A DNA stretch of 34,489 bases, from positions 1 through 34,489 of the IMG/VR virus record IMGVR_UViG_2671180921_000023; one strand, given 5' to 3'. Below, piece by piece: positions 4,886-29,016 of this stretch (position 1 is the stretch's first letter; each line of letters begins with the position of its first letter). Under the pieces are notes generated by a model. It did not search any database. It had not been told where the DNA came from and worked only from the letters and a program-made list of their open reading frames with translations. A program made the position numbers and the translations under genes. This DNA comes from a virus. Its lineage: Duplodnaviria; Heunggongvirae; Uroviricota; Caudoviricetes.

Positions 4886-7800
4886 TATTCGTGTCAGCTT
4901 TGGCGCAATTGACCGGCTGACACGCCCGACCGAAAACGCCCGCCGTCAGGTGGGCGCTCTCACTGAATCCCTTCAGAAGACGCAGGACAACATACAGGCG
5001 CTCGACAGGCAGTCGAAGGTGTTCGAACGTGCCGCCGGAAATCTCAGTAAATACCGCGAACAGATTGCCCGTGCGGAGCAGAGGCTCGCCGGGCTGCGAA
5101 AGGCAGAGCAGAACGGTAACATCCTCTCCGAAAAGCAGCGCGAAACGCTGGCGGCACTCTCCGCGCGGCTTGAGCGCCTGAACGAGCTGCGCACGCGCGA
5201 ACGCGAAAAACTTCAGGCGGCGGCAGGGGAAATGCGCAAACACGGCATTCTGCTTTCCGGCAGCAGCCGCACCATTGAAAGTGCCGTTCGCCGTACACAG
5301 CAGTACAACGAGCTGCTCGAGCGCGAACGGCAGGCACTGGCTCGCGTGACGCAGGCACAGAGCCGCTATGAGGCCGCGAAGGCACAGGCGGAAAAACTGC
5401 GCAACACAGGGGCTGTGGCGATGGCGGCGGGTACAGGCGGCCTGTATGCGGCGCAGCGTATGATGGCTCCGGCGATGGAGTCCGAACAGCACGGTGCGGT
5501 CATCGCAGCCGGTTCGGGGGAAGGCGCACAGGATGGCGCACGTTACACCCACATTATTCGTAACATACAGGCTGACGGTCTCGCTGATTTTGCCGGTGCT
5601 GCGGAGGCTGTGAGTGCGGTACGCAGTACGCTCGGCGCGCTGGGCGACACCGGCGACCGGGAACTGGAGCGCATCAGCCGTCGTGCGCTGGATATGCGGA
5701 CCGTCTTTGGTGTTGATGTGCCACAGGGCATTCAGGCCGCTGCCATCATGATGAAGAACGGGCTGGCTGCCAGCAGTGACGAGGCCACCAACCTGATGAC
5801 GGCAGGGATGCAGCGCATGTCCGCTGAAATGCGCGATGAACTGCCGGAAATTCTGCACGAGTATTCCACCCACTTCCGCAACATGGGTTTCACCGGCAGA
5901 GAGACAATGAGCCTGCTGGTTGAGATGGCAAAGCAGGGCAAGTTTGCGCTGGATAAAACCGGCGATGCCGTGAAGGAGTTCAGCATCCGGGGTTCGGATA
6001 TGTCGAAATCCAGTGTCTCAGCGTATGAGACACTCGGCCTGAATGCCGAACGGGTGTCTGCTGCCATTGCACAGGGAGGCAGCACCGCACGTCAGGCGAT
6101 GCAGGTGACCGCCCGTGCACTGCTGGCCATCCGTGACCCGGCAGAGCGGGCGAACACGGCCATTGCGCTGTTCGGCACACCCGTTGAAGACCTCTCCGTT
6201 GACCAGATCCCGCAGTTCTTAAAGGCGCTGGCCGATGTCCGTGACAACCTGGGTGATGTCAGCGGCGTGGCAGAGCGCATGGGGCAGACGCTGCGCGGTA
6301 ATCTTTCCGGCGATGTTCAGGCGCTGAGTGGCGCGTTCTCAGGGCTACGCACGGACATCTTCGGTACTGTGACCGAGGATTTGCGCGGGCTGGTTCAGAC
6401 GGTGAGCGCGTGGGTGACCCGGATGCGCGAATGGGTCGGAGAGCATCAGGCGCTGGTCAGAGTCCTGGTGCTGACCGGCGGGAGTGTTCTGGCGCTGTCT
6501 TCCACGTTCGGTGCGCTGTCACTGACGCTCGGGCTGATTGCGGGGCCGCTGGCAAAACTGCAACTGGGACTGGGGTTGCTGACGGGGGGCGGCGGCATTG
6601 GTGGGGCTGTCCGGCTTGTGTCCGCGCTGGCGCTGCGCCTGACGGGATTGTCTTCCCTGTGGGGACTGGTCACAGGGGCGGTGTCGGTACTGGGGGGCGC
6701 ACTGGGGGCGCTGTTCAGTCCGGTCGGGCTGATTGTTGCCGCCCTGGTGGGCGGCGCGGTTCTGGTGTGGAAATACTGGGATCAGATCAGCGCGTTTTTT
6801 TCCGGCTTTTTTGCCGGAGTGTGGGAGGCGCTGCAACCGCTGCGGGAAGCCTTTGCATCGCTGGCTCCGGTGTTCGGGCTGATTGGCGACGGCATCAAAG
6901 CCGTGTGGGAGTGGTTCACCCGCCTGCTTGAACCTGCGAACGCCTCAAAAGAGACGCTCGACAAATGCACCAGAGCCGGGGAGTTGTTCGGCAAAACGCT
7001 GGGGTGGGTCATTCAGAACATTGTGCTGGGGCCGCTGACGCTGCTCCTTGAAGGCCTCGGTACTGTGCTGAAATGGCTGGGTGTCATTCCTGACGGCATC
7101 AAAAATGCACAGAAGGAGACGCAAAAACTTCAGGAGAGCGCCGCACAGCAAAACGAACAAAAAGCGCCGGTTGCGTGGGAGTGGGATCCCGCACAGAAAA
7201 AAATGGTGCAGAAGTCGTGGGCGTGGTCATCAGATGCAGCGGAAAACAACGGCGACAATAAACCCGCAATACCTGCCCCTGCTGTTCCCGGAGAGGTGAA
7301 GGGAACGGCAGGCAATCCGGTCGGCAATCCCGGCAGCAAATCCCCGCTGGATGAGGCATGGTTCCGGCAGGGGATACAGAAAACCGCCAGCAATACAGGC
7401 GGGCTTCTTGAGGAAACAAAAAAACGTACTGGCCCCGGCGATATTGTTTTCAAAAATCTGCCCGGACCCGAAATCATTCACGGCGAGTGGAAAGCGCCGC
7501 AGGTTATCCGGACAGTGCAGGCGGTATCGGCGGGCGGAGGACTGGCGGATGTGCTGACAACGCTCTGGCAGAAACTCACCGGAAGACAGACTGTTTCGCC
7601 CGTTCCGGCAGTGAATGTGCCAGCACCGGTGGTGAATGTGGCGCGTCAGGTGTCCGCACTGCCGCAGCCGCGTAACGTGACGGCAGGCATGACAGGTGCG
7701 GTAATGGCTTCCGCTCCCGTCGCGGAGGCTATCCGGCCCCCGTTGCGACCGGAACCGGCCGGAAGGGAAGCTGCGCCACAGCCGCAGGCGGCTGCGTTTT

Positions 7801-8501: not shown

Positions 8502-9146
8502 TCACTGAATCGTACTTGTGAAGGTTTGCGTATCGGTGTTTGTATTTTCGTCGGGAATGTCAGGCCAGATAATCGCCTCAACGTCCGCTTTGTTGGCGAT
8601 GCTTGTGAAATCCAGTGCGTGCAGTGCGTCAACGTAGTCAAGCCACGCATCCAGTGATGCCTGCTCGTTTTCCGTCAGTGAACGGCCAAGCAGCAATTTT
8701 GTCTGGCTGATAACAAGCTGCTGGCGTGCGCTGTTGAGTAACGAATCACGCTTGGTTACCGCCGCTGTGACTGCGGCACTGCGCTGTGCTTCCGTATCCG
8801 TCACCCAGGATGTGCCGTTCCACTTCTGATATTCACCATCCGGGGATAACCAGGTGACATTTTCCGGTAATGGGCCAAGTTCAGAAATAAATAACGCATC
8901 TCCTGTGTCCACGTCATAAACTGTTTTACCCCGATGGTCTTCAACGAGATGCCACGATGCCTCATCACTGTTGAAAACAGCCACGAAGCCTGCCGGAATA
9001 ACTGGCGGTGCAATATCGGTACTGTTTGCAGGCAGACCTGTATGAGGTGGAATGTGTGCATCACCTTCACCAATAAATTCATTGGTTCCTGGCAGCAGAT
9101 TATAAATTTTTATGGTCTGTGGTTGTTCACTCATTCTGAATGCCAT
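8502..9146 (-). CDS. G: Tail fibre assembly protein (gpG/Tfa family)
   Basis: 214 aa downstream of H, Tfa-like. Start ATG overlaps the H stop (TAATG coupling); alternative start at 9134. Confidence 0.8.
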
Positions 9147-16477: not shown

Positions 16478-17290
16478 TCACGCGGATTTTTTGCTTTTCC
16501 GTGTGGCAGTGGCTTTTGCGGCGCTCTTTTTGCCTGCCTTTTTCGTCACGGTTTTCGTGGTGGCGGTTTTCGCGGTGCTTTTGTTTTCCGCGTTGTTCTC
16601 CCCGCCATCACTGCTGGTCAGCTTTTTCACCGCGCGGGACAGCGTGGCAATCTCGCGCTTCACGCCCGCGTTCGGGTTCAGGTGCATCGCTTCGCGCAGA
16701 AGTTTCAGCGACAGGGTCACACTGTCTGCATCTGTCAGAGCACGACGGGAAAACGCGCGCGCCTTGCAGAGTTTGGCGCGAACCTCGTCCGGCATGTCCC
16801 GACCGGCGACAATTTCCTGTAGCGTGTCCAGCGGGGCGATGTATCCGGACAAATCCGCGTCCTGGTCCGTGCCTGCCAGCGTCAGCACCGGGTTACAGAT
16901 TTCCTCTGTCAGCAGCGTGGCGGCATCGCGCCCGAAGCTGTCCGGTGTGCTGAGGTTATGGCGCACCACGTACTCACCGATACGCAGCGCCAGCGGCAAA
17001 TCACCACAGTCAACGGCCCAGACCATGAGGGTGACAATCACCTCATCCTGGCGTCCGCTGTCGCTCTCCAGCATGCCGTCAATCCAGCCGGAAAAATCCG
17101 GCAGCAGTGTCTTTTTCAGTTCCGCTTTCGCCGCCTTTGACTGAATGCCTTTCAGTCGTGCCTGTGCCAGTCGCAGGCGATGCAGGATTTGTTCGTGAGC
17201 CGTGCGCACTGTCTGTGACTGACTGTCATCGGTCAGTCCGGCGCGTTGTGCCATCGTGCGCTGAAAATGCGCCTGTGCCGGTGTCAGCAT
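16478..17290 (-). CDS. M: Terminase small (endonuclease) subunit gpM
   Basis: 270 aa, P2 gpM-like with a Lys/Ala/Thr-rich basic C-terminal tail. Confidence 0.85.
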   Translation of the reverse strand: MLTPAQAHFQRTMAQRAGLTDDSQSQTVRTAHEQILHRLRLAQARLKGIQSKAAKAELKKTLLPDFSGWIDGMLESDSGRQDEVIVTLMVWAVDCGDLPLALRIGEYVVRHNLSTPDSFGRDAATLLTEEICNPVLTLAGTDQDADLSGYIAPLDTLQEIVAGRDMPDEVRAKLCKARAFSRRALTDADSVTLSLKLLREAMHLNPNAGVKREIATLSRAVKKLTSSDGGENNAENKSTAKTATTKTVTKKAGKKSAAKATATRKSKKSA

Positions 17291-19288: not shown

Positions 19289-19439
19289 ACGGCCTCCTCG
19301 AATATCGTTGTGCTCATGATGACGCGCCCTGTGGCCCGTGCTCAACGCGGTGGTGTTGTCGGAGCGTTGCGACAAAGTGCGGTGTGAATACAGGCGGGAC
19401 GTGCGCGTGTAGCCTGTATGGCAGGAGGTGACAGACGGC
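19289..19439. promoter_or_regulatory. Divergent late promoter region between O and P
   Basis: 151-bp gap between divergently transcribed capsid (O) and terminase (P) operons, as in P2. Confidence 0.5.
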
Positions 19440-21182
19440 ATGATTCAGGACGCATTCATCAGGCTGCGGGCAAAACAGCTTTACTGGCAGGGCTACCCGC
19501 CCGCTGAAATATCGCGGCTGATGGGTATCAGTCAGAACACGATTTATTCGTGGAAAAAGCGCGACGGATGGGATGAAACGCCGCCCGTGGAGCGGGTCAC
19601 GCAGTCGATTGATGCGCGACTGGTTCAGCTGACCTCAAAAGCTGAAAAGAGCGGCGGTGATTTTAAGGAAATCGACCTGCTGACACGCCAGCTCGCAAAA
19701 CTGAATGACAACAGGGGCGGAGCGGAAAAAAGCCCGCGAAAACGAAAGCTGAAAAACCATTTTTCCGAATCGCAGGTTGCCGCACTGCGCGAACACATCA
19801 CCGGTCAACTGGCAGAGCATCAGAGACGCTGGTATGAGGCACTGGACGTCTGCCGTCGTGCCGGTGTTGATATTCGCATCATTGTGAAATCCCGACAGAT
19901 AGGCGCGACCTGGTATTTTGCGCAGGAGGCACTGCTGCGTGCGCTGGATGAGAGCGTGAAATATCCGTACCAGCGAAACCAGATTTTTTTGTCAGCCTCA
20001 CGCCGTCAGGCCTTTCAGTTTAAAAGCGTGATTCAGAAGGCGGCACAGGCTGTGGACGTCGAGCTGAAAGGCGGTGACAAAATTGTGCTTTCTAACGGCG
20101 CGGAACTGCATTTTCTGGGGACATCCGCCGCGACTGCGCAGTCCTATACGGGCAATCTGTATTTTGACGAATTTTTCTGGGTGTCGAACTTCATCACGCT
20201 GCGCAAGGTCGCAGGCGCGATGGCCACGCTGAATGGCCTGACGCAGACCTACTTTTCCACGCCGTCATCGGAGATGCACGAGGCGTTTCAGTTCTGGAAC
20301 GGCGCGCGGTGGAATGCCGGGCGACCACGCAGTGAGCGCCGGGAGATTGATGTGTCCCATCATGCTCTGAAGAGTGGGGTGCTGTGCCCCGACAGCGCGT
20401 GGCGACAAATCGTGACGATTCAGGATGCGGTGGACCTGGGCTGGACGCTCACCAGTATCGACAAAATCCGCAACATGAACTCGCCGGATGAGTTCCGCAA
20501 TCTCTACATGTGCGAGTTTGTCAGCGACGGCGAATCCGCCTTCGACCTTAATGCCCTGCTGGGCTGTGGTGTGGACGGCTATGATGAGTGGAATGACTGG
20601 AAACCGTTCGCAGCACGTCCGGTGGGTAATCGTCCGGTGTGGATTGGCTACGACGCTAACGGCAGCAGCGGTAACGGCGACAGCGGGGCGCTGTCTGTTG
20701 TTGTTCCGCCTGCTGTCAGGGGCGGCAAATTCCGCACGGTGGAGACGTTACAGGTGCAGGGGCTGGAATTTGAAGAGCAGGCCCGTGTGATTGAGCAGTT
20801 CACGCACAAATACAACGTCCAGCACATTGGTATCGACGTGACCGGCGGTAACGGTGAGGCGGTGTACCAGATAGTGCGGCGGTTCTGGCCTGCCGCCGTG
20901 CCGTACACGTTCACACTGGCATCCAAACGCGCGCTTGTGCTGAAGATGTTGCAGATTATTCGTGCGGGGCGCTGGGAGTATGACCGGGGCGAACGTGAGC
21001 TGGTCAGGGCATTCAACGCTGTGCGCAAGGCAAAAACGGCGGGTGGGGCAATAACGTATGAAACAGACCGCACACGCGGCGTGAACCACGGCGACCTCGC
21101 GTGGGCAACCATGCTTGCCGTCATTAACGAGCCGCTGGGCGATGAGGACGGTGCTACAGGAATGCGGGTGATTGAGTTCTGA
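19440..21182 (+). CDS. P: Terminase large (ATPase) subunit gpP
   Basis: P2 gpP-like. ATG 19440 preceded by AGGAGG; the ORF-track start at 19428 is a GTG inside the RBS. Confidence 0.9.
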   Translation: MIQDAFIRLRAKQLYWQGYPPAEISRLMGISQNTIYSWKKRDGWDETPPVERVTQSIDARLVQLTSKAEKSGGDFKEIDLLTRQLAKLNDNRGGAEKSPRKRKLKNHFSESQVAALREHITGQLAEHQRRWYEALDVCRRAGVDIRIIVKSRQIGATWYFAQEALLRALDESVKYPYQRNQIFLSASRRQAFQFKSVIQKAAQAVDVELKGGDKIVLSNGAELHFLGTSAATAQSYTGNLYFDEFFWVSNFITLRKVAGAMATLNGLTQTYFSTPSSEMHEAFQFWNGARWNAGRPRSERREIDVSHHALKSGVLCPDSAWRQIVTIQDAVDLGWTLTSIDKIRNMNSPDEFRNLYMCEFVSDGESAFDLNALLGCGVDGYDEWNDWKPFAARPVGNRPVWIGYDANGSSGNGDSGALSVVVPPAVRGGKFRTVETLQVQGLEFEEQARVIEQFTHKYNVQHIGIDVTGGNGEAVYQIVRRFWPAAVPYTFTLASKRALVLKMLQIIRAGRWEYDRGERELVRAFNAVRKAKTAGGAITYETDRTRGVNHGDLAWATMLAVINEPLGDEDGATGMRVIEF

Positions 21183-22225
21183 TGAAAAAACAAAAACGAA
21201 AATATTCGCGCCGCGATGACGGCGTGGCGCTGGCAGAGGCACTGCGCCGCCAGCCGTCGTTAAGCGCCTTCTCGTTCGACGGCCCTTACGATGCGCACGC
21301 ACTCGACCTGCTGGATAACGCATACTGTCTGAGTAACGGCAGATACTACGAAACGCCCGTTGACTGGTACGGACTGGCGCGGGCATCCCGGCAGACCTCG
21401 TGGCACCAGTCGGCGCTGTACTTCAAGCGGAATGCCCTTCTGGGCTGCTTCATTCCGCACCGGCTGTTGTCCCGGCAGGCGTTCTCCGCCTTTGCGCTGG
21501 ACTGGTTTGTGTTCGGGAATGCGTTTCTTGAACTGCGCACCAACAGGCTGGGCGGAAAGCTGGAACTGCGGCACGCGCTGGCGAAGTACACCCGCCGAGG
21601 TGTGGAACCGGATGTGTACTGGTTTGTGCAGACGGGGGAGCAGGATCACGAGTTCCGTCAGGGGCGCGTCTGTCACGTCATGAATCCCGACATCAACCAG
21701 GAAGTTTACGGGATGCCGGAATACCTCGGCGGCCTGCTGTCTGCCAGTCTGTCTCACTCGGCGGACCGCTTCCGCAAACTCTACTATGACAACGGTTCAC
21801 ACGCAGGCTGCATCATTTACGTGGGGGCTGCACAGGTTGACCGCGAAAGCATGCAGGCACTCGAAAACGCATTACAGGGCGCAAGAGGCGGCGGGGCATT
21901 CAAAAACCTGCTGCTCCAGGCACCGAACGGCGGGAAGGACGGCGTGCAGATCCTGCCGTTTCAGCAGATCACCGCACGGGATGAGTTCATCAACGTGAAG
22001 ACCGCCTCACGTGATGATGTGCTGGCCGCTCACCGCGTACCGCCACAGCTGATGGGCGCAATGCCTGGTGGGGCCGGTTCTTTTGGTGATGTGGAGAAGG
22101 CGGCAAGAGTGTTCGCAATCAACGAACTGATCCCCGTCATGGAGGCGATGAAACACGTCAATGACTGGCTGGGTGAGGAGGTGATCCGCTTTAATCCCTA
22201 CGCACTGCTTGATGCGTCAGCCTGA
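21182..22225 (+). CDS. Q: Portal (capsid vertex) protein gpQ
   Basis: 347 aa, P2 gpQ-like; ATG overlaps the P stop. Confidence 0.9.
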   Translation: MKKQKRKYSRRDDGVALAEALRRQPSLSAFSFDGPYDAHALDLLDNAYCLSNGRYYETPVDWYGLARASRQTSWHQSALYFKRNALLGCFIPHRLLSRQAFSAFALDWFVFGNAFLELRTNRLGGKLELRHALAKYTRRGVEPDVYWFVQTGEQDHEFRQGRVCHVMNPDINQEVYGMPEYLGGLLSASLSHSADRFRKLYYDNGSHAGCIIYVGAAQVDRESMQALENALQGARGGGAFKNLLLQAPNGGKDGVQILPFQQITARDEFINVKTASRDDVLAAHRVPPQLMGAMPGGAGSFGDVEKAARVFAINELIPVMEAMKHVNDWLGEEVIRFNPYALLDASA

Positions 22226-22251
22226 CGCGCTCCGCTTGTCTGCTGCTTCGC

Positions 22252-22276
22252 CGGGGCATAAAAAATTTATGCCCCG
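22252..22276. repeat. Near-perfect 25-bp palindrome immediately after Q (cggggcataaaaaatttatgccccg)
   Basis: Perfect inverted arms ggggcataaa/tttatgcccc; no T-run follows, so it may be a protein-binding site rather than a terminator. Confidence 0.5.
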
Positions 22277-22597
22277 ACTCACCAGCTCCGGTGTGTCACG
22301 CACCAGGCATCTCAGGGATCTACAGGTTGAATAACCTGTCAGCACACGCCGCACCAAAGCGCATCACAGGGCGTGTGATGCATCAGCCCATACTTCACAC
22401 ACAACCAATAAAACATCGCGTCAGGGGCGCAATCAGCCGCATTTCTGGCGATTTCTGGGGATGCTTTCAGACCCCAAATTGCGGGCTGTTCCCCCGGCAC
22501 CCGCGCGCAACAAAAACGCGTTTTTTTGTGCACGCACGGATCCTCGACGGATCCAGCCGCTACGCGGGCTTAATGGCAAAAAATATGGCTGAAAAAA

Positions 22598-22624
22598 TTG
22601 TGCAAATTTGTGCACTATTGTGCA
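22598..22624. repeat. Three direct TTGTGCA repeats at exact 10-bp spacing; candidate protein-binding array in the presumed cos region
   Basis: TTGTGCA at 22598, 22608 and 22618; a fourth copy at 22526-22532. Lies in the convergent gap downstream of Q where P2-family cos is expected. Confidence 0.4.
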
Positions 22625-22664
22625 GCAGGGTGATGTGTGATTATCGCCCTGGTTTGTCGAGGAT

Positions 22665-23204
22665 CTAATAATCTTCTGTCTCCTGCCACGAGACTTTTCC
22701 GCCTGCCTTTATGATGGCTCGCTCAACATCCCGTTCGTATCGCAAAGGCTGGAATACGCCGTTAATGAAATACTCCTTTGGGTCCGGGATCGATACGGTA
22801 AATTTGTCATTCTCTGGTTTTGGTATTGGTGAGACTGGATGCTCGTTTTTGGCAAGTTTTTTTATGACTCCCTCGTATTTTTCTTTTGTACATTGCATCG
22901 CCTCTTCAAAAGAAAGCGCTTTGTTACGCATTAACACGGCGTACTTTAGTGCATCCTGTGCTTTCTGGAATTTAAGTGCATAGTCAGTGGCGATTTTTTC
23001 CAGTTCAGCAGCCCGCCTTCGAAGCCCTTCAATCTCACCATTGCGGGCGATGAGGTTGCAGCACATTCTTTCATTCTCATCCAGCAACGCCAGCACAACC
23101 GATGGTGTCACCTGTTCATGGAAAATATCCGCATCATATCCCCAGTCATCATGTATTGCCTGCTCTGCCGCTTCACGCAGTGCCTGATAGTCAATCTTGC
23201 TCAT
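22665..23204 (-). CDS. Hypothetical phage protein, possibly Ead/Ea22-like
   Basis: 179 aa; N-terminus MSKIDYQALREAAE and motif PSVVLALLDE. Last gene of the accessory operon; 4-nt overlap with the upstream gene. Confidence 0.45.
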   Translation of the reverse strand: MSKIDYQALREAAEQAIHDDWGYDADIFHEQVTPSVVLALLDENERMCCNLIARNGEIEGLRRRAAELEKIATDYALKFQKAQDALKYAVLMRNKALSFEEAMQCTKEKYEGVIKKLAKNEHPVSPIPKPENDKFTVSIPDPKEYFINGVFQPLRYERDVERAIIKAGGKVSWQETEDY

Positions 23205-23788: not shown

Positions 23789-24121
23789 TCATCTTCCTAC
23801 TCCCTGCGTTCCTTGTTTTTCGCGGATAACTTCGTTGCACAGTTCCACACACTCGTCGCAGATGAAAACGTCGTCCCCGGCAATTAACTGTTTGACGGCG
23901 TGCTGTGGTTTCTTGCAGAAGCTGCAATAAAGCGTTTGCCTGACAGATACGGATGATGTGTAGGATGTCAGCCTCGCGATGTCGTTCTTGCGGCGCAACA
24001 TCACACGGCAGCACTCAACCAGTTTCTCCGGGGCGATTTCTTCCTCTGTGGCGAGCGCCTCCAGTCGTTCGAGTATGTGGAAGGCTTTTTCCTCGGTAAT
24101 TGCAGAATGCGATGTGGTCAT
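23789..24121 (-). CDS. Small protein with a C-terminal ClpX-type C4 zinc-binding domain
   Basis: C-terminal [39 protein letters not shown] closely resembles the ClpX N-terminal zinc-binding domain. Start at ATG 24121 with AAGGAG RBS. Confidence 0.65.
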
Positions 24122-24132
24122 CTCTTTCTCCT

Positions 24133-24333
24133 TCAAAGTTCAGTGTGCTGACAGAGGTGTCCTTTGCGACAGACCAGGACGCTTCCCTTACTTGAGTCGG
24201 TGATTGTCACCGTGCCGTCATCGCACTGGACAACGATGACGGTGTTGCTCTTTTCCGTTGCGCAGTTCGGCGTGGTTGAATGCGCCAACGGAATGAAAAA
24301 CAGCGAAAAAAGTAATGTCAGTCTTTTCATCAT
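24133..24333 (-). CDS. Small secreted cysteine-containing protein (66 aa) with N-terminal signal peptide
   Basis: [19 protein letters not shown] signal-like N-terminus; short Cys-containing mature part; overlaps the start of the ClpX-ZBD gene. Confidence 0.4.
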
Positions 24334-24407: not shown

Positions 24408-24719
24408 TTATTCGGGGAATAAGGCCCTGATGTTTGCGGCCATCTGGCTGGGTGTCTGCACCTCTGGCGCAACCTGTACTTTGGGGCTTTCCGCCCTGAG
24501 CTGTGTCACGGGTAACGGCTCATCGTCAGCCCATGCAGCCAGCCGGTAAGCCTCTGCCGGATTCGTCTTCAGAAGTGCCAGCCCGGCCAGAAAAGCCACA
24601 CGTTGCCCGCTTTTGCGGGCTTCCGGTGTAAGGCTGTCCAGCCAGGCACATGCTTCGTTTTCGTTCTTGACTGCGGCTGGCTTCAGATAGAAACTTATCC
24701 GCCTGGTTGATGTTGTCAT
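24408..24719 (-). CDS. parR: ParR/StbB-like partition adaptor
   Basis: 103 aa, immediately downstream of parM; N-terminal RISFYLKPAAVKNE ... AFLAGLALL resembles plasmid R1 ParR. Confidence 0.65.
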   Translation of the reverse strand: MTTSTRRISFYLKPAAVKNENEACAWLDSLTPEARKSGQRVAFLAGLALLKTNPAEAYRLAAWADDEPLPVTQLRAESPKVQVAPEVQTPSQMAANIRALFPE

Positions 24720-24723
24720 TGGT

Positions 24724-25683
24724 TCACTCCCTGTTCATGTCATGGAGTCCATTAACCAGGGCAAACTGTGGCTCCGGTGTTGTGTGAATGTTTGCGTTGA
24801 GGCCGTAAGCGTCATGTACCGCCGGAGCCACAATCTCCGCCCCTCCACCGACAATCATCACCCGACCGTATCCCGAAAAGCCCGCCAGTGCGCGGATCAC
24901 GCGTTGTTTCAGTGTTTCTTCCTTTTCACGAATAACCGCCATCAGGCTGGCGTAATGCGCGTCATTGTGGATGTGCTGGCGCAGCCAGGCTTCATCGTGG
25001 CGATGTTCGATAATGGTATTGGCGATGTGGTGACTGGTACGCATACCGTTAGTGGCCATCACCGACAGTACGGCATCGGTCATCAGTGAAACGCCTACGT
25101 GTGGATCGCAAAATACCTGGCTGATGCCTGCCAGTTGCCCCTGAACCTTTGCCACATCCAGCGTGGTTCCGCCTAAATCCACAATCAGCAGGGATTCAAA
25201 CGGACTCATGTCAGCCAGTGCTTTAAAACCAGCCGGAATGGATTCAGGCATAACCCGTACGTTACGGATAGTGAATGCTTTTCCGTTCTGGTACGCCACC
25301 GGGCGCATGACGTTTGCTTTTTTGCGGTTGATGTTGGCCATGTCCGGCTGTGCGTTTGTGTCGAAATACTCGCTCAGTGGCAGGGTGACAACCACATCCA
25401 CTTCCTGTGGTGTGATGCCTGATTTGACCAGCGCGTGATGAATGGCAATGACATTCACATCGCTGTACTGGTATTGCGTGTCGGTCGTCTGGACAAAGCG
25501 ATCGCTGACCGGATCAAAACCATAGCGCACGCCATCAAGCATGTAGTTCGCGGGCTGCGTGCCACCGAACGGCGCAGACCATTCCGACTTGAAGCTGTTC
25601 GGGCTGATGGCGTTGCGGCGTTCGCCGTTCTCAGTCCATGCCAGCTTGATGTTGGTGGAGCCGTCATCGATACAAATTTTCAT
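24724..25683 (-). CDS. parM: ParM/StbA actin-like segregation ATPase
   Basis: 319 aa with ParM phosphate-binding motifs: IDDGSTNIKL, FTIRNVRVMPESIPAG, LLIVDLGGTTLDV, VMIVGGGAE. Co-linear with R1 ParM. Confidence 0.85.
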   Translation of the reverse strand: MKICIDDGSTNIKLAWTENGERRNAISPNSFKSEWSAPFGGTQPANYMLDGVRYGFDPVSDRFVQTTDTQYQYSDVNVIAIHHALVKSGITPQEVDVVVTLPLSEYFDTNAQPDMANINRKKANVMRPVAYQNGKAFTIRNVRVMPESIPAGFKALADMSPFESLLIVDLGGTTLDVAKVQGQLAGISQVFCDPHVGVSLMTDAVLSVMATNGMRTSHHIANTIIEHRHDEAWLRQHIHNDAHYASLMAVIREKEETLKQRVIRALAGFSGYGRVMIVGGGAEIVAPAVHDAYGLNANIHTTPEPQFALVNGLHDMNRE

Positions 25684-25714: not shown

Positions 25715-25827
25715 TTTACGGGATTCTGAAATCCCGTTTTTGCCTGTTTTGTGCGCGCTTCATATATCGCTGCGCGTTTTTTGCTCATTTACGGGATTCG
25801 TGAGTCCCGTTTCTGTCTGTTTTTTGT
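25715..25827. repeat. Two 40-bp direct repeats, each a hairpin plus T-run; candidate parC centromere/promoter or origin-associated element
   Basis: Copy 1 at 25715-25753 (intergenic, upstream of parM); copy 2 at 25788-25827 (inside the last codons of gene A). Each has an ACGGGATT-type 8-bp stem. Confidence 0.5.
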
Positions 25828-28600
25828 TTCCGCTGGTCAGGCCACCCCGCAGCAGGTCTGCTTTGCGGCTGGCGCGTTCAGTGGTTTCACTGATTCTCTG
25901 TGCGTGCTCTGCGTCGCGGATGGCGCGCAGCATGTCAGAAAGCACGGTAACGGGTGTTTTCATGGTGTTCTGGTCCTGCTGAAGTGTGGATGCCAGGCGT
26001 GCGGCGGCTTCAGGGTCTGATGCCCCCAGCTGTGCCAGATAGCTGGCGACCGGGTTATGGCGGATCTCCGTGCTGCTTACGCCATGATTACGGCTCAGGC
26101 GCTGCCAGAGCTGCGTGATTCGGCTGTCCGGGCGGGTATCCGGTTTGCGTACAATTTCAAATCCCTGCGGTGCAATGATGCTGCCGTCAACGTACAGACT
26201 GCCGCCCCGTAACAGGTGCTGCATCTGTTGTTCACCGATATGCAGGCCGAGAGATTCAGCAGACTCCCGCCATTCTTTAGCGAGTAATTCGTGGTTATCA
26301 GGCAAAGGCCGCTGCTGTTTGCGGCTCTGTGTCCAGCTCTGCATTTCATCACTGCTGTTTTTTGCCTGTTTGTCACGAAGCGAACGCATCAGCGCCCGGC
26401 GTTCGTGCCGTTTCAGTGAGCGCATCCATTCGTTCACTTCAACGCCGTCAGGGAGCTGCGGCCACGGTGCTGGCCGTTCTTCCGGCTGTTCTGTCCCGTT
26501 GTTGTCCGTTTCCTGTACACGGGGACAGTTATTGCCACGAGTCCAAGGGGCGGCAGGGCCGCCCTGAAGGTCAAAACCATTTTCGCGGGAGCTGTCTTCC
26601 GCTTCCGGTTTACGTCTTACCAGCTTCCAGTTATCCGGGTGCGTGCACACACGGGAGGATTCCCCGATGAGTGGTGACCAGATCCCGTAAATCTGTACAC
26701 TCTGTTCGCCGTAATCGTTCAGCTCATCTGCGAGGTCGTAGGCGGTGCGAATCAGGTAGTCTTTACGTGGAACAAGTACTCCGCCCTGTTTCTCAATGTA
26801 GGTGGCAAAACATCCGGCATCAGCGGCAGCAAGAACCGCATCCATTGCGTCATCCTTCAGCCGTTGTGGGCCTTCCGGGTTGCGTGCCATCTGGCTGGCA
26901 AGGCGGCGCAGTTCACGCCATACCTGACGGGAGGGGATACCAAAGAACTGGAACTGGCGGACCCGGTGAAGGCGCGCCCAGCCGATGGCGCGCTCCACGC
27001 TCTCGGCCATTGATTTTCCGGTTTCGTGGTCAACGCGTGGCTTGCCCGTTTTCGGGTCGATGCCATCCACGGCGCGGCTATCCAGGTTCTTTCCGATGTA
27101 GGTGGCGATGTAGCTGGTTGGCGTGCCTTTCGAACCGTCGACGTACTCTGCCTTAAAGCGCGGAGTAATATCATTGCCCAGCTCGTGGCGGTCTTCCTGA
27201 ATGGCAATATCGCAGACGTGGGACACGATGGTTTCAATCTCGTCCGGATGTGCAAAGACCATCATATGCCAGTGCACCGTGCCGTCATGGTGAGGCTCCA
27301 CCGTGCGGATGCCATACCAGCGCAGACCGTCGCGGTTCAGTTTTTTGCGGACCGCCGCAAAAAACGTGTTAACCAGGTAATCGCTGGAGTCGCGCATGGT
27401 GGCTCCGTTCCATTTGGGGTTCGGATGACCGTTCTCCGTTGTTGCGTGGTATTTTGACGGGCAGGTGACAGTCAGAAACACCGCTCTGTCGCCACGGGCT
27501 TCGGCCAGAAGTTCCAGCCCCTTCATGGTGGCCATCATTTCTGCCTTACGGTGAACCGGGTTACTTACTCCCGCGTAATACACTGTCTCGAGATCAATCG
27601 TGAACCCGTCTTCATTTTCCAGCATGAAACTTTTCAGGAAATCGCGTGTTTTCTCGCGCTGTGCGCGAAACTCGCTTAACGCGTCCTGGCTCAGATAGGG
27701 TGATGTTTTTCTGGAAACCAGACAGGCGGCGCGGAGTTGTTCTTCTCTCCACTCGCAACGTAACAGCCACAGTTTGCGTTTCCACCATTCCGCACAGGTC
27801 AGGCGAAGGATTGCGCCCGGCAGCAGCTCCGTGTCCGGTTCGTTCCTCCGGTCTTTGTCTGTTGTCAGTGCGTCATAATGTGGAGGCATGGCGTGCAGGT
27901 GTAACGCCATGCGGGCCAGCATCTGATACGCCTTCAGCGTTACATCCATGGTCAGTTCGCCATCAGTAGCGCCAAAGCCATCGCAGAGTTTTTCGAAGGT
28001 GCTGCTGAACATCGCCGCCGTCATGGTGGCCAGCGTCTGTATCTGGTGTTTGTTGAGCTGCGGCAGGTAAAGCAAATCGTCCAGGCGTTCGCGTCCGGCA
28101 AGGGAGCGATAACCCGGTGTCAGCCAGCGGTGATCGGTGCGGTCCAGACGTTCGAATATTTTGCGCAGGGTTCCGCGCGCGTAGCGTTCAGCCTGCCAGC
28201 TCTTTTTGCCTTTCTGGCGATCGGCTTCCTGTTTTTTGCGCAGGAAAGAGAGGTGGCGGCTCAGAGGTTCACGCAGATAAACGGGAAGCACCTTCAGTGT
28301 GGCAAAAGCACGGGCCACCGGGTCTTGTTCTGTTGCCTGACGCTTGCTGATGATGCTTTGTGCCAGCTTTTCACGCTGTCCGGCTTCCTCAAGGGATGCC
28401 ATGAGTTTTTTACCCATGGCGGATTGTGCGAAAAAGGCTTCCTCCTTCGCTTCCTGTTCTTCCTGGGCCTTTTTGTCTGCCTCAAGGTAGTAACGGATGG
28501 CGCGTTGCAGGTCGGTTTCAGTTTCCTGCCTGCACTCCGTAAATCTGGCCGGATCAATGGCTGGCCGCGGTTCATTCCAGCTCCATGCAAACTCACTCAT
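25760..28600 (-). CDS. A: Replication initiation protein gpA (rolling-circle HUH endonuclease)
   Basis: About 946 aa, P2 gpA-like with HUH motif (VHWHMMVF). Start at ATG 28600 overlaps the upstream stop (ATGA coupling). Confidence 0.85.
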   Translation of the reverse strand: MSEFAWSWNEPRPAIDPARFTECRQETETDLQRAIRYYLEADKKAQEEQEAKEEAFFAQSAMGKKLMASLEEAGQREKLAQSIISKRQATEQDPVARAFATLKVLPVYLREPLSRHLSFLRKKQEADRQKGKKSWQAERYARGTLRKIFERLDRTDHRWLTPGYRSLAGRERLDDLLYLPQLNKHQIQTLATMTAAMFSSTFEKLCDGFGATDGELTMDVTLKAYQMLARMALHLHAMPPHYDALTTDKDRRNEPDTELLPGAILRLTCAEWWKRKLWLLRCEWREEQLRAACLVSRKTSPYLSQDALSEFRAQREKTRDFLKSFMLENEDGFTIDLETVYYAGVSNPVHRKAEMMATMKGLELLAEARGDRAVFLTVTCPSKYHATTENGHPNPKWNGATMRDSSDYLVNTFFAAVRKKLNRDGLRWYGIRTVEPHHDGTVHWHMMVFAHPDEIETIVSHVCDIAIQEDRHELGNDITPRFKAEYVDGSKGTPTSYIATYIGKNLDSRAVDGIDPKTGKPRVDHETGKSMAESVERAIGWARLHRVRQFQFFGIPSRQVWRELRRLASQMARNPEGPQRLKDDAMDAVLAAADAGCFATYIEKQGGVLVPRKDYLIRTAYDLADELNDYGEQSVQIYGIWSPLIGESSRVCTHPDNWKLVRRKPEAEDSSRENGFDLQGGPAAPWTRGNNCPRVQETDNNGTEQPEERPAPWPQLPDGVEVNEWMRSLKRHERRALMRSLRDKQAKNSSDEMQSWTQSRKQQRPLPDNHELLAKEWRESAESLGLHIGEQQMQHLLRGGSLYVDGSIIAPQGFEIVRKPDTRPDSRITQLWQRLSRNHGVSSTEIRHNPVASYLAQLGASDPEAAARLASTLQQDQNTMKTPVTVLSDMLRAIRDAEHAQRISETTERASRKADLLRGGLTSGNKKQTETGLTNPVNEQKTRSDI

Positions 28601-29016
28601 GGCTGGTATCCCGTCACGCGCTGCCACTCCTGCGAGAAGAGGGTGGAAAGGCGGTTAAACTCAGCGGTGTATTCACTCAGCGAGGCACACCCGCCAGCAG
28701 TGTGATGCGCCAGCATTGCCGCAAATACGGAGGCCGGGGAGTCGTAATACGCCAGCAGTGATTCGCCGTGTGGTGTCAGGCAGTGCAACGCCAGCCCGTG
28801 TGGTGTCAGGCAGTGCAACGCCAGCCCGTGTGGTGTGAAGTCCACGCGGTAGCAGTCGTCTACTGTGAAATAAAGGGTGTCCGCATTCTCCGGTTTTGTG
28901 GTGCGTGCTCTGTTGTCACGACCGCGGATGTAGAGATCAAATAATCCCTGAAGAACGGGAGCCAGACGGGTGTCCTGTGTGCGCACCCATCTTGTGAAGT
29001 CATGAGCGTCAATCAT
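28597..29016 (-). CDS. Hypothetical early protein (139 aa) with an internal in-frame tandem duplication
   Basis: Protein repeat TPHGLALHCL x2 plus a partial third, encoded by a perfect 30-bp tandem repeat; translationally coupled to A. Confidence 0.5.
   Translation of the reverse strand: MIDAHDFTRWVRTQDTRLAPVLQGLFDLYIRGRDNRARTTKPENADTLYFTVDDCYRVDFTPHGLALHCLTPHGLALHCLTPHGESLLAYYDSPASVFAAMLAHHTAGGCASLSEYTAEFNRLSTLFSQEWQRVTGYQP
28767..28836. repeat. Perfect 30-bp tandem direct repeat (2 full copies plus a 10-bp partial) inside a CDS
   Basis: cgtgtggtgtcaggcagtgcaacgccagcc repeated at 28767-28796 and 28797-28826, then cgtgtggtgt. Confidence 0.9.

Follow-up and report, generated by a model that had tools for sequence, protein, structure and literature searches.

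Genes and repeats at the locus

The window, that is, the whole stretch of DNA analysed here, spans 34,489 nucleotides, and its closest phage records are P88-like Peduoviridae (Xuanwuvirus, Gemsvirus). The small terminase subunit gpM is encoded on the minus strand (16478-17290, assigned with Pfam) along with the scaffold and capsid genes, and the large terminase gpP on the plus strand (19428-21182; Pfam Terminase_5, HTH_23, Terminase_6N and Terminase_6C). The portal protein Q follows at 21182-22225 (Pfam Phage_portal). The region under study occupies a non-coding position by Q and terminase P in this P2-like head module, as defined with Pfam. Q lies upstream of it, in agreement with the initial annotation, which had presumed a cos region here. 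Between this region and the replication gene gpA (25760-28627) we found cargo genes, all on the minus strand, at 22665-23204, 23789-24136 and 24408-25683. The cargo products include a ParM/StbA actin-like segregation ATPase, a ParR-like protein (Plasmid_stab_B), a ClpX-zinc-finger ORF and an Ead/Ea22-like ORF, and the annotation of the partition cargo in P88 agrees with that of the window. For a P2-like phage, a partition operon of the plasmid type is a hint of a plasmid-prophage stage or of a role in stabilisation. At the very start of the window, matches to the IHF consensus cluster at 127-142, 230-242 and 334-346, one of them exact, and this cluster may be part of an attP/integration region.

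Three copies of TTGTGCA lie at 22598-22604, 22608-22614 and 22618-22624, spaced by exactly 10 bp, and a fourth copy occupies 22526-22532, 72 bp from the distal triplet. This arrangement is present in the sequence just as it was first described. On the plus strand, the distal array (22592-22624) opens with a run of six A residues, and the proximal site (22521-22532) is a T-run followed by GTGCA (TTTTTTTGTGCA). TTGTGCA occurs 9 times in the 34.5 kb, against 9.24 expected, which amounts to no enrichment over the window as a whole. The triplet is, on the other hand, the sole 7-mer occurring three times at 8-13 bp spacing in the window, and none of 300 dinucleotide-preserving shuffles of the window produced a 7-mer triplet phased at 9-12 bp.

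The palindromes that had been proposed as part of the same signal are also real as sequences. A 14-bp palindrome, AAAAACGCGTTTTT, lies at 22512-22525, in the position of the P2 hairpin CGCCCGCTTCACGGGGCGG. Two GGATCC units (22538-22543 and 22549-22554) belong to a direct repeat of ACGGATCC, 11 bp apart, that brings two Dam GATC sites into the spacer (22536-22554, plus strand). The spacer itself runs from the proximal to the distal sites (22533-22591) and is constrained in length and variable in sequence. The direct repeat is confined to the P88 "type A" spacer; other P88 spacer types have a single (C/G)GATCC, and an Escherichia coli satellite described below has none. Neither element is conserved, the palindrome and the second GGATCC being missing in divergent relatives and in satellites in which all four repeats are retained. 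The palindrome carries uncompensated substitutions in close relatives, is missing from other spacer types and folds no better than shuffled sequences (z = +0.39). We therefore rejected functional hairpins, given the lack of conservation and of compensatory changes and a fold within the range of the shuffles. Most probably AAAAACGCGTTTTT does not act as a palindrome, its T-run being the conserved part, and both it and the GGATCC pair probably lie outside the core signal.

Another hairpin, formed by CGGGGCATAAA and TTTATGCCCCG at 22252-22276, lies 27 nt past the Q stop codon. It is very stable, with a folding energy of -22 kcal/mol (z = -5.6), and is invariant in P88-type relatives, and since a T-tract follows it on neither strand it is no canonical intrinsic terminator. 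In the non-coding interval between Q and cos, P88 is annotated with two short "hypothetical protein" CDSs, SF19_gp22 and gp21 (1577-1705 and 1725-1868 of our P88 locus, L001), which are probably spurious, as relatives differ by indels in that interval. An Rfam scan of 22100-22800 returned only sub-threshold chance matches, and a promoter scan returned none in the cos region.

Layout of the cos region and its two word classes

The GenBank records of P2, 186 and P4 begin and finish at the cohesive ends and thus serve as experimentally defined references for cos. The P2/P4 site has been described as 19-nt cohesive ends and a 55-bp core (Ziermann and Calendar, 1990, as cited in PMC5694545 and PMC9594776). 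When P4 and 186 are read in the same direction as the window, their 19-nt end is followed by a short hairpin, by TTTTAATGCA at +20 to +29, by a stretch of about 65 bp and by three ATGCA at +97, +107 and +120 from the cos end. P2 has the same proximal copy, and its distal triple is spaced by 10 and 12 bp. If the core of the window is set at 22485-22503, all four repeats fall at the offsets of P2, 186 and P4, and for this reason we placed the putative cosN or cohesive-end core, GCTGTTCCCCCGGCACCCG, at these plus-strand positions, to within 1-2 nt as judged by the repeat spacing. Counted from this core, the window carries TTTTTGTGCA plus GTGCA at +25, +97, +107 and +117. The matching layout and offsets suggest that the array is the counterpart of the classical cos element, in which G takes the place of A. 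We dropped another way of aligning the P88 core, on a common GCGCGC motif, since it destroyed the conserved offsets.

Several traits are common to the window and to P2, 186 and P4. The site lies between portal gene Q and the replication or cargo side, the core, putative in the window, is GC-rich with a CCCC run, a T-run plus RTGCA stands at +25, three RTGCA follow at about +97 to +121, some 72 bp away, and a gene hotspot comes right after. The first of the RTGCA elements, about 25 nt from the core end, falls inside the published P2/P4 55-bp core, and the three phased distal ones match a pattern that we derived here from P2, 186, P4 and 106 relatives. The window differs in having GTGCA instead of ATGCA at the four sites, an A/T palindrome or nothing in place of the core-side hairpin, and a terminase with 35-48% identity. 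Its core also differs. By eye, 22485-22503 equals the reverse complement of the P2 cohesive end GTGCTTTCCCCGCCTCGCC at 11 of 19 bases and shares the CCCC run of the P2-type 19-nt GC-rich end (GGCGAGGCGGGGAAAGCAC), the exact P2-type end being absent. Among 19 divergent representatives, the putative core is nearly invariant. Judged by layout homology with P2, 186 and P4, the region is the cos site of a P88-like phage of the Peduoviridae, as the initial annotation had presumed.

In an alignment with P88 and phage 500465-2, the conserved block extends from about 22455 to 22624 and ends exactly after the third TTGTGCA. On the Q side, the flank of the core (22458-22484, plus strand; ...CCCC(A/T)(A/G)AA(T/C)(T/G)GCGG) is common to P88-type phages and the E. 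coli satellite. Conservation there starts only about 27 nt left of the core, far less than the approximately 121 bp conserved on the other side. Neither of the linear P88-type records NC_049391 and NC_049343 starts at the putative core, which makes them uninformative on virion ends, and the start of the P88_4B11 record, considered as a virion end, was rejected because its place, about +78, seems to be no more than an arbitrary point at which the assembly begins. In Ralstonia and Burkholderia relatives, cos was not located with the patterns used.

We refer to P2/186/P4-type regions, with ATGCA, as the A class and to P88-type regions, with GTGCA, as the G class. The A class was sampled by scanning viral contigs for the P2/186 cohesive end, which gave 106 unique cos regions. 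ATGCA stands at +25 in 102 of these; 74 have it at +97, 65 at +107 and most at +117 or +120, the third distal copy varying in position from +117 to +120. In all, 25 of the 106 lack a clean distal pair under the strict pattern. In the G class, GTGCA is found at all four offsets in 65-69 of 72 unique sequences (69/72 at +25). The opposite word is essentially absent at the four offsets in each class, ATGCA being absent there in the G class. Spacing is tightly kept in the A class, with 10 bp between the first and second distal sites in 80 of 81 sequences and 72 bp between the proximal and first distal site in 50 of 81 (71-73 bp in 65). The window and P4 likewise have 72 bp between these two sites, and one further locus (L008) has 71 bp. 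Median pairwise identity in the A class is 0.87 at +1 to +30, falls to 0.35 in the spacer, rises to 0.67 at +95 to +112 and drops to 0.27 beyond. By this comparison, constraint acts on the repeats and their spacing, not on the sequence of the spacer.

Both classes occur in E. coli phages. The ATGCA type is also found in Yersinia YenM_56.17, Erwinia ENT90, Salmonella RE-2010 and Klebsiella ST13-OXA48phi12.1, and Klebsiella Kp4846-1 has a degenerate mix of AATGCA, TACGCA and TGTGCA. The packaging proteins of the window have 67-77% identity to those of the G class and 35-49% to those of the A class (gpM 35%, gpN 41%, gpP 48% and gpQ 49%). Between clades, all four copies switch jointly with the cos core and the terminase.

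This concerted switch is what would be expected of sites read by a phage protein, not of sites for a host factor, which the initial annotation had named as one possible binder. The corresponding alternative holds that the repeats are host nucleoid-protein sites, or intrinsically bent phased A/T tracts, with no phage protein reading them. It can draw on the A/T-rich hexamers that alternate with GTGC at a 10-bp period after the run of six to seven A, and on the use of IHF and intrinsic bending by lambda cosB (PMC9611059). Yet among phages of a single host species, E. coli, the terminase clade decides whether all four positions hold ATGCA or GTGCA, and the invariant letters are the (A/G)TGCA cores, the A/T spacers being variable. 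Moreover, the IHF consensus WATCAANNNNTTR, with up to one mismatch allowed, has no match in 22440-22640. We consider a host factor an unlikely reader of the array.

In Aeromonas phage LPM4, ATGCA stands at +25 and the distal array is replaced by GATCC-type repeats, with three GATCC(TT) at +92, +104 and +123 (L337, around 6320-6360). As the proximal and distal words of this phage differ, both need not be read by one protein. GATCC also appears once or twice in P88-type and 186-type spacers and, GATC being the Dam methylation site, a link to methylation state is possible.

Conservation, cargo junctions and satellites

The conservation of the repeats was assessed in 80 P88-type loci that had been collected through the Q protein and are hence unselected for the repeat. 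The triplet is exact in 71 of them, carries one substitution in 6 and is truncated or interrupted in the remaining 3. Prophages with unrelated spacers, from E. coli ET650, Pantoea, Mixta, Enterobacter, Citrobacter, Trabulsiella, Erwinia and Symbiopectobacterium, retain the T-run plus GTGCA and an intact AAAAAAATTGTGCAAATTTGTGCACTATTGTGCA. These same prophages lack AAAAACGCGTTTTT and have one (C/G)GATCC, which identifies the repeats, not the palindromes, as the conserved feature. A pattern scan of genome contigs was dominated by unrelated matches (Bryobacteraceae and others), about 20 Enterobacterales loci being informative among the matches listed. A few Bryobacteraceae/Bryobacterales MAGs (within L089-L208) contain at least dozens of exact TTGTGCA-N3-TTGTGCA-N3-TYGTGCA, at many loci per genome, which suggests an unrelated family of dispersed repeats.

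Among 5426 complete E. coli genomes, 1148 contain a match to the module, and in nearly all E. coli matches listed the alignment ends at 22623-22625. Variable cargo takes over from the conserved cos module at 22625. Where two Q-anchored loci have similar left sides and unrelated right sides, they begin to diverge most commonly right after the third GTGCA (571 of 1240 pairs), and in the ATGCA class it sets in 1-7 nt past the third copy. More than 15 kinds of unrelated right flanks were found next to the P88-type array. From these alignments, the array is the outer edge of the DNA that selection appears to retain and the last conserved element before the cargo hotspot. The defence hotspots of P2 and P4 directly adjoin cos (PMC9122126), and our junction data agree. 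The repeats stay at fixed distances from the putative cutting site, and past them the sequence is free to change, so that they most likely belong to a signal for the packaging enzyme.

A junction as sharp as this one could also mean that the array is a recombination or crossover site used to exchange the adjoining defence and cargo cassettes. In most comparisons the cargo does begin exactly where the third repeat ends, and the locus beside cos is known as a hotspot at which genes turn over (PMC9122126, PMC13586616). Selection for packaging up to the last base of the repeat, however, predicts an equally sharp junction, and no recombinase is consistently found with the locus. An exchange site would also leave unexplained the distance to the core, the proximal copy, the clade-specific word and the satellites. 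In addition, Fels-2-like and Klebsiella phages carry an extra gene between Q and cos, on the side opposite to the array. We regard recombination as a quite unlikely explanation.

The genes on that side are an abortive-infection gene in Salmonella RE-2010 (L333, 7067-8731, with cos at about 8850-9000) and RloB/ATP-binding genes in the Dagavirus Klebsiella ST13-OXA48phi12.1 (L332, cos at about 9245). As they lie opposite to the cargo side of P2 and P88, the hotspot flanks cos on a lineage-dependent side. In another locus (L064, around 7385-7427), an IS1 end (GGTAATGACTCCAACTTATTGATAGTG...) is inserted right behind the cos core (…GTCACCTG/GGTAATGAC). This insertion splits the core from the proximal repeat, so that the prophage is presumably packaging-defective.

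Transcription from the cargo side offers another explanation, namely that the array is a weak intrinsic terminator or insulator halting convergent minus-strand cargo transcription before cos. The adjacent minus-strand cargo gene (22665-23204) ends 40 bp from the array, and at 22615-22600 of the minus strand a terminator scan picked up GTGCACAAATTTGCAC with AATTTTTT after it. The hairpin in question has a 5-bp stem, a folding energy of -6.1 kcal/mol and a z of -0.33 against shuffles, short of the stable GC-rich hairpin with a T-run expected of an intrinsic terminator. Termination would leave the third repeat, the proximal copy 72 bp away and the invariance of GTGCA without explanation, and the array is retained beside cargo of both orientations and in satellites. 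The classical phages point in the same direction. The p95 terminator t95b annotated in 186 is situated outside the array, towards the cargo, and in P2 the old/tin transcript starts just past the third repeat and runs away from cos, the third repeat overlapping a -35-like TTGAAT as judged by eye. A terminator is thus very unlikely. Finally, a chance repeat or low-complexity artefact, compatible with a whole-window count equal to expectation, is excluded by the shuffles and by the conservation of the array between genera and in over 1000 genomes of E. coli.

The module is present in satellites as well. Contig QAKE01000006 (L172 and L204) has a copy at each end, repeating with a period of 12,207 bp, and encodes two integrases, a toprim/alpha-like primase, an AlpA-like regulator and a P2-family capsid protein, with neither terminase nor portal. 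The record, QAKE01000006.1 (12,723 bp), has been binned as "Bacillota" and is clearly enterobacterial. An element of about 12 kb in E. coli ETEC1748 (L335, 5500-17800), located by a tRNA-Arg gene, has the same gene make-up plus an Ogr/Delta-like gene, and carries the core, TTTTTTGTGCA and GTGCAAATTTGTGCACTTTTGTGCA. Both satellites are devoid of the AAAAACGCGTTTTT palindrome and of the GGATCC pair. Since satellites that depend on a helper terminase retain exactly this module, their composition supports its reading as a packaging signal. The same satellite logic once revealed the common cos of P2 and P4.

These elements belong to a family of satellites of about 12 kb that includes L105, L122 and L153. 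Its members carry an alpha-like toprim primase, one or two integrases, an Ogr/Delta-like activator, a P2-family major capsid gene of their own and a GTGCA-type cos, and have no psu, sid, terminase or portal genes. A tblastn search for the P4 genes psu, delta and sid found none beside GTGCA-type cos sites. By their gene content, the satellites found here are of another type than P4.

Proposed recognition of the repeats

A fixed distance to the core, a position at the last conserved bases, retention in satellites and a switch with the terminase clade are the behaviour of a packaging-linked recognition element. The terminator, host-factor and recombination explanations fit worse than a cosB-like one. 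Hence, we propose that the four YGTGCA copies are probably the cosB-like, sequence-specific terminase recognition part of a P88-type cos, and that they represent its GTGCA specificity variant. One copy lies about 25 bp from the putative nick site and three lie about 97-121 bp away, all on the side opposite to Q. As the distal sites are one helical turn apart and the proximal site is about seven turns off, all four should fall on roughly one face of the DNA. Terminase protomers are predicted to bind the three phased sites cooperatively. The length-constrained spacer would then bend or loop, so that the complex also holds the proximal site, and the nuclease would thereby be set on the adjoining GC-rich core for the staggered cut. 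Binding of this kind would mark phage rather than host DNA for packaging. The GTGCA variant accompanies a different cos core and a diverged terminase, P2, 186 and P4 using ATGCA. In this scheme, the binding protein, the looping, the nick positions and the direction of packaging are what we infer, next to the observed layout, conservation, concerted switch and satellites. A cosQ-like role in termination could apply instead of a cosB-like one.

The cosB site of lambda, with its R3-I1-R2-R1 sites bound by gpNu1 and a bend introduced by IHF, is a comparable scheme in outline. Both systems have several short repeats on one side of the nick, within about 120 bp and asymmetrically placed, and in both a spacer could join distal and proximal sites. 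They differ in that the two have no sequence relation, no match to the IHF consensus occurs in the cos region of the window, and its sites are 5-7 bp long at exact 10-bp spacing instead of the 16-bp R elements. A winged-helix small terminase is lacking too, the gpM model being without one and the HTH of the window residing in the large subunit. Repeat-based pac sites, such as the TGATCA/G hexamers of P1 pac or the pacL and pacR boxes of SPP1, serve headful packaging, which makes no cohesive ends. Here too, short helically phased repeats flank the region of terminase cleavage, and the P88-type spacer has GATC (Dam) sites, but these are not conserved across spacer types.

The initial annotation interpreted the phased sites as recognised by a protein, such as the small terminase or a host factor. 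A selected element tied to packaging is upheld by our data; as to the binder, a host factor is unlikely and the small terminase is not clearly the reader. The model of gpM is a TPR-like helical solenoid with no HTH or recognisable DNA-binding fold, unlike the small terminases of lambda, SPP1 and P22, which combine an HTH with an oligomerisation core. The same model shows a disordered, Lys-rich tail of 40 residues, and the old label of gpM as "endonuclease subunit" finds no support in the predicted fold. A sequence search of gpM and gpP against the PDB gave no matches. We keep gpM as a candidate partner or reader. An HTH occupies the N-terminus (aa 11-67) of the large subunit gpP, the other candidate reader, and the differences fixed between classes are densest in that part of the protein (14 of the first 30 compared residues, against about 25% overall). 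That the gpP N-terminus reads the repeats is nevertheless only weakly hinted at by this pattern, because the entire module co-diverges, and for the same reason residues specific to one class do not tell whether gpM or gpP is the reader.

In a bolder version, RTGCA would be a packaging specificity code of the Peduoviridae that defines helper-satellite compatibility groups and is read by the N-terminal HTH of gpP, not by the small terminase. We hold this to be possible, and on balance rather doubtful. If true, an ATGCA group would unite P4 with helpers of the P2/186 type, and a GTGCA group would unite the capsid-gene-bearing 12-kb satellites with P88-type helpers. Several gpP protomers would be docked on the three phased sites, a division of labour unusual for a cos phage.

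The P2/P4 cos and its 55-bp core are classical, and on sequence comparison we rate the GTGCA array as a new specificity variant of it. The accessible literature mentions only the 55-bp core, and we came across no account in it of distal phased RTGCA repeats or of a P88-type cos. In the work of Ziermann and Calendar from 1990, a fragment of about 125 bp was reportedly enough to transduce a plasmid. In that case, one or more of the outermost repeats may boost packaging and not be essential. Cos fragments of varying length show large, unexplained differences in efficiency (PMC9594776). For the design of P2/P4-based cosmids and transducing particles, reaching the third repeat may therefore matter for efficiency.

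Altogether, the comparison defines the full natural packaging module of the P2 family as about 27 bp, the core and about 121 bp, which is much beyond the quoted "55-bp core". A core followed by four RTGCA at fixed offsets is also a simple cos marker for thousands of Peduoviridae prophages. The array accounts for the start of the defence-gene hotspot at exactly the base that follows its third repeat. The packaging module exists in at least two specificity versions, and the word class would predict which satellites are mobilised by given helpers.
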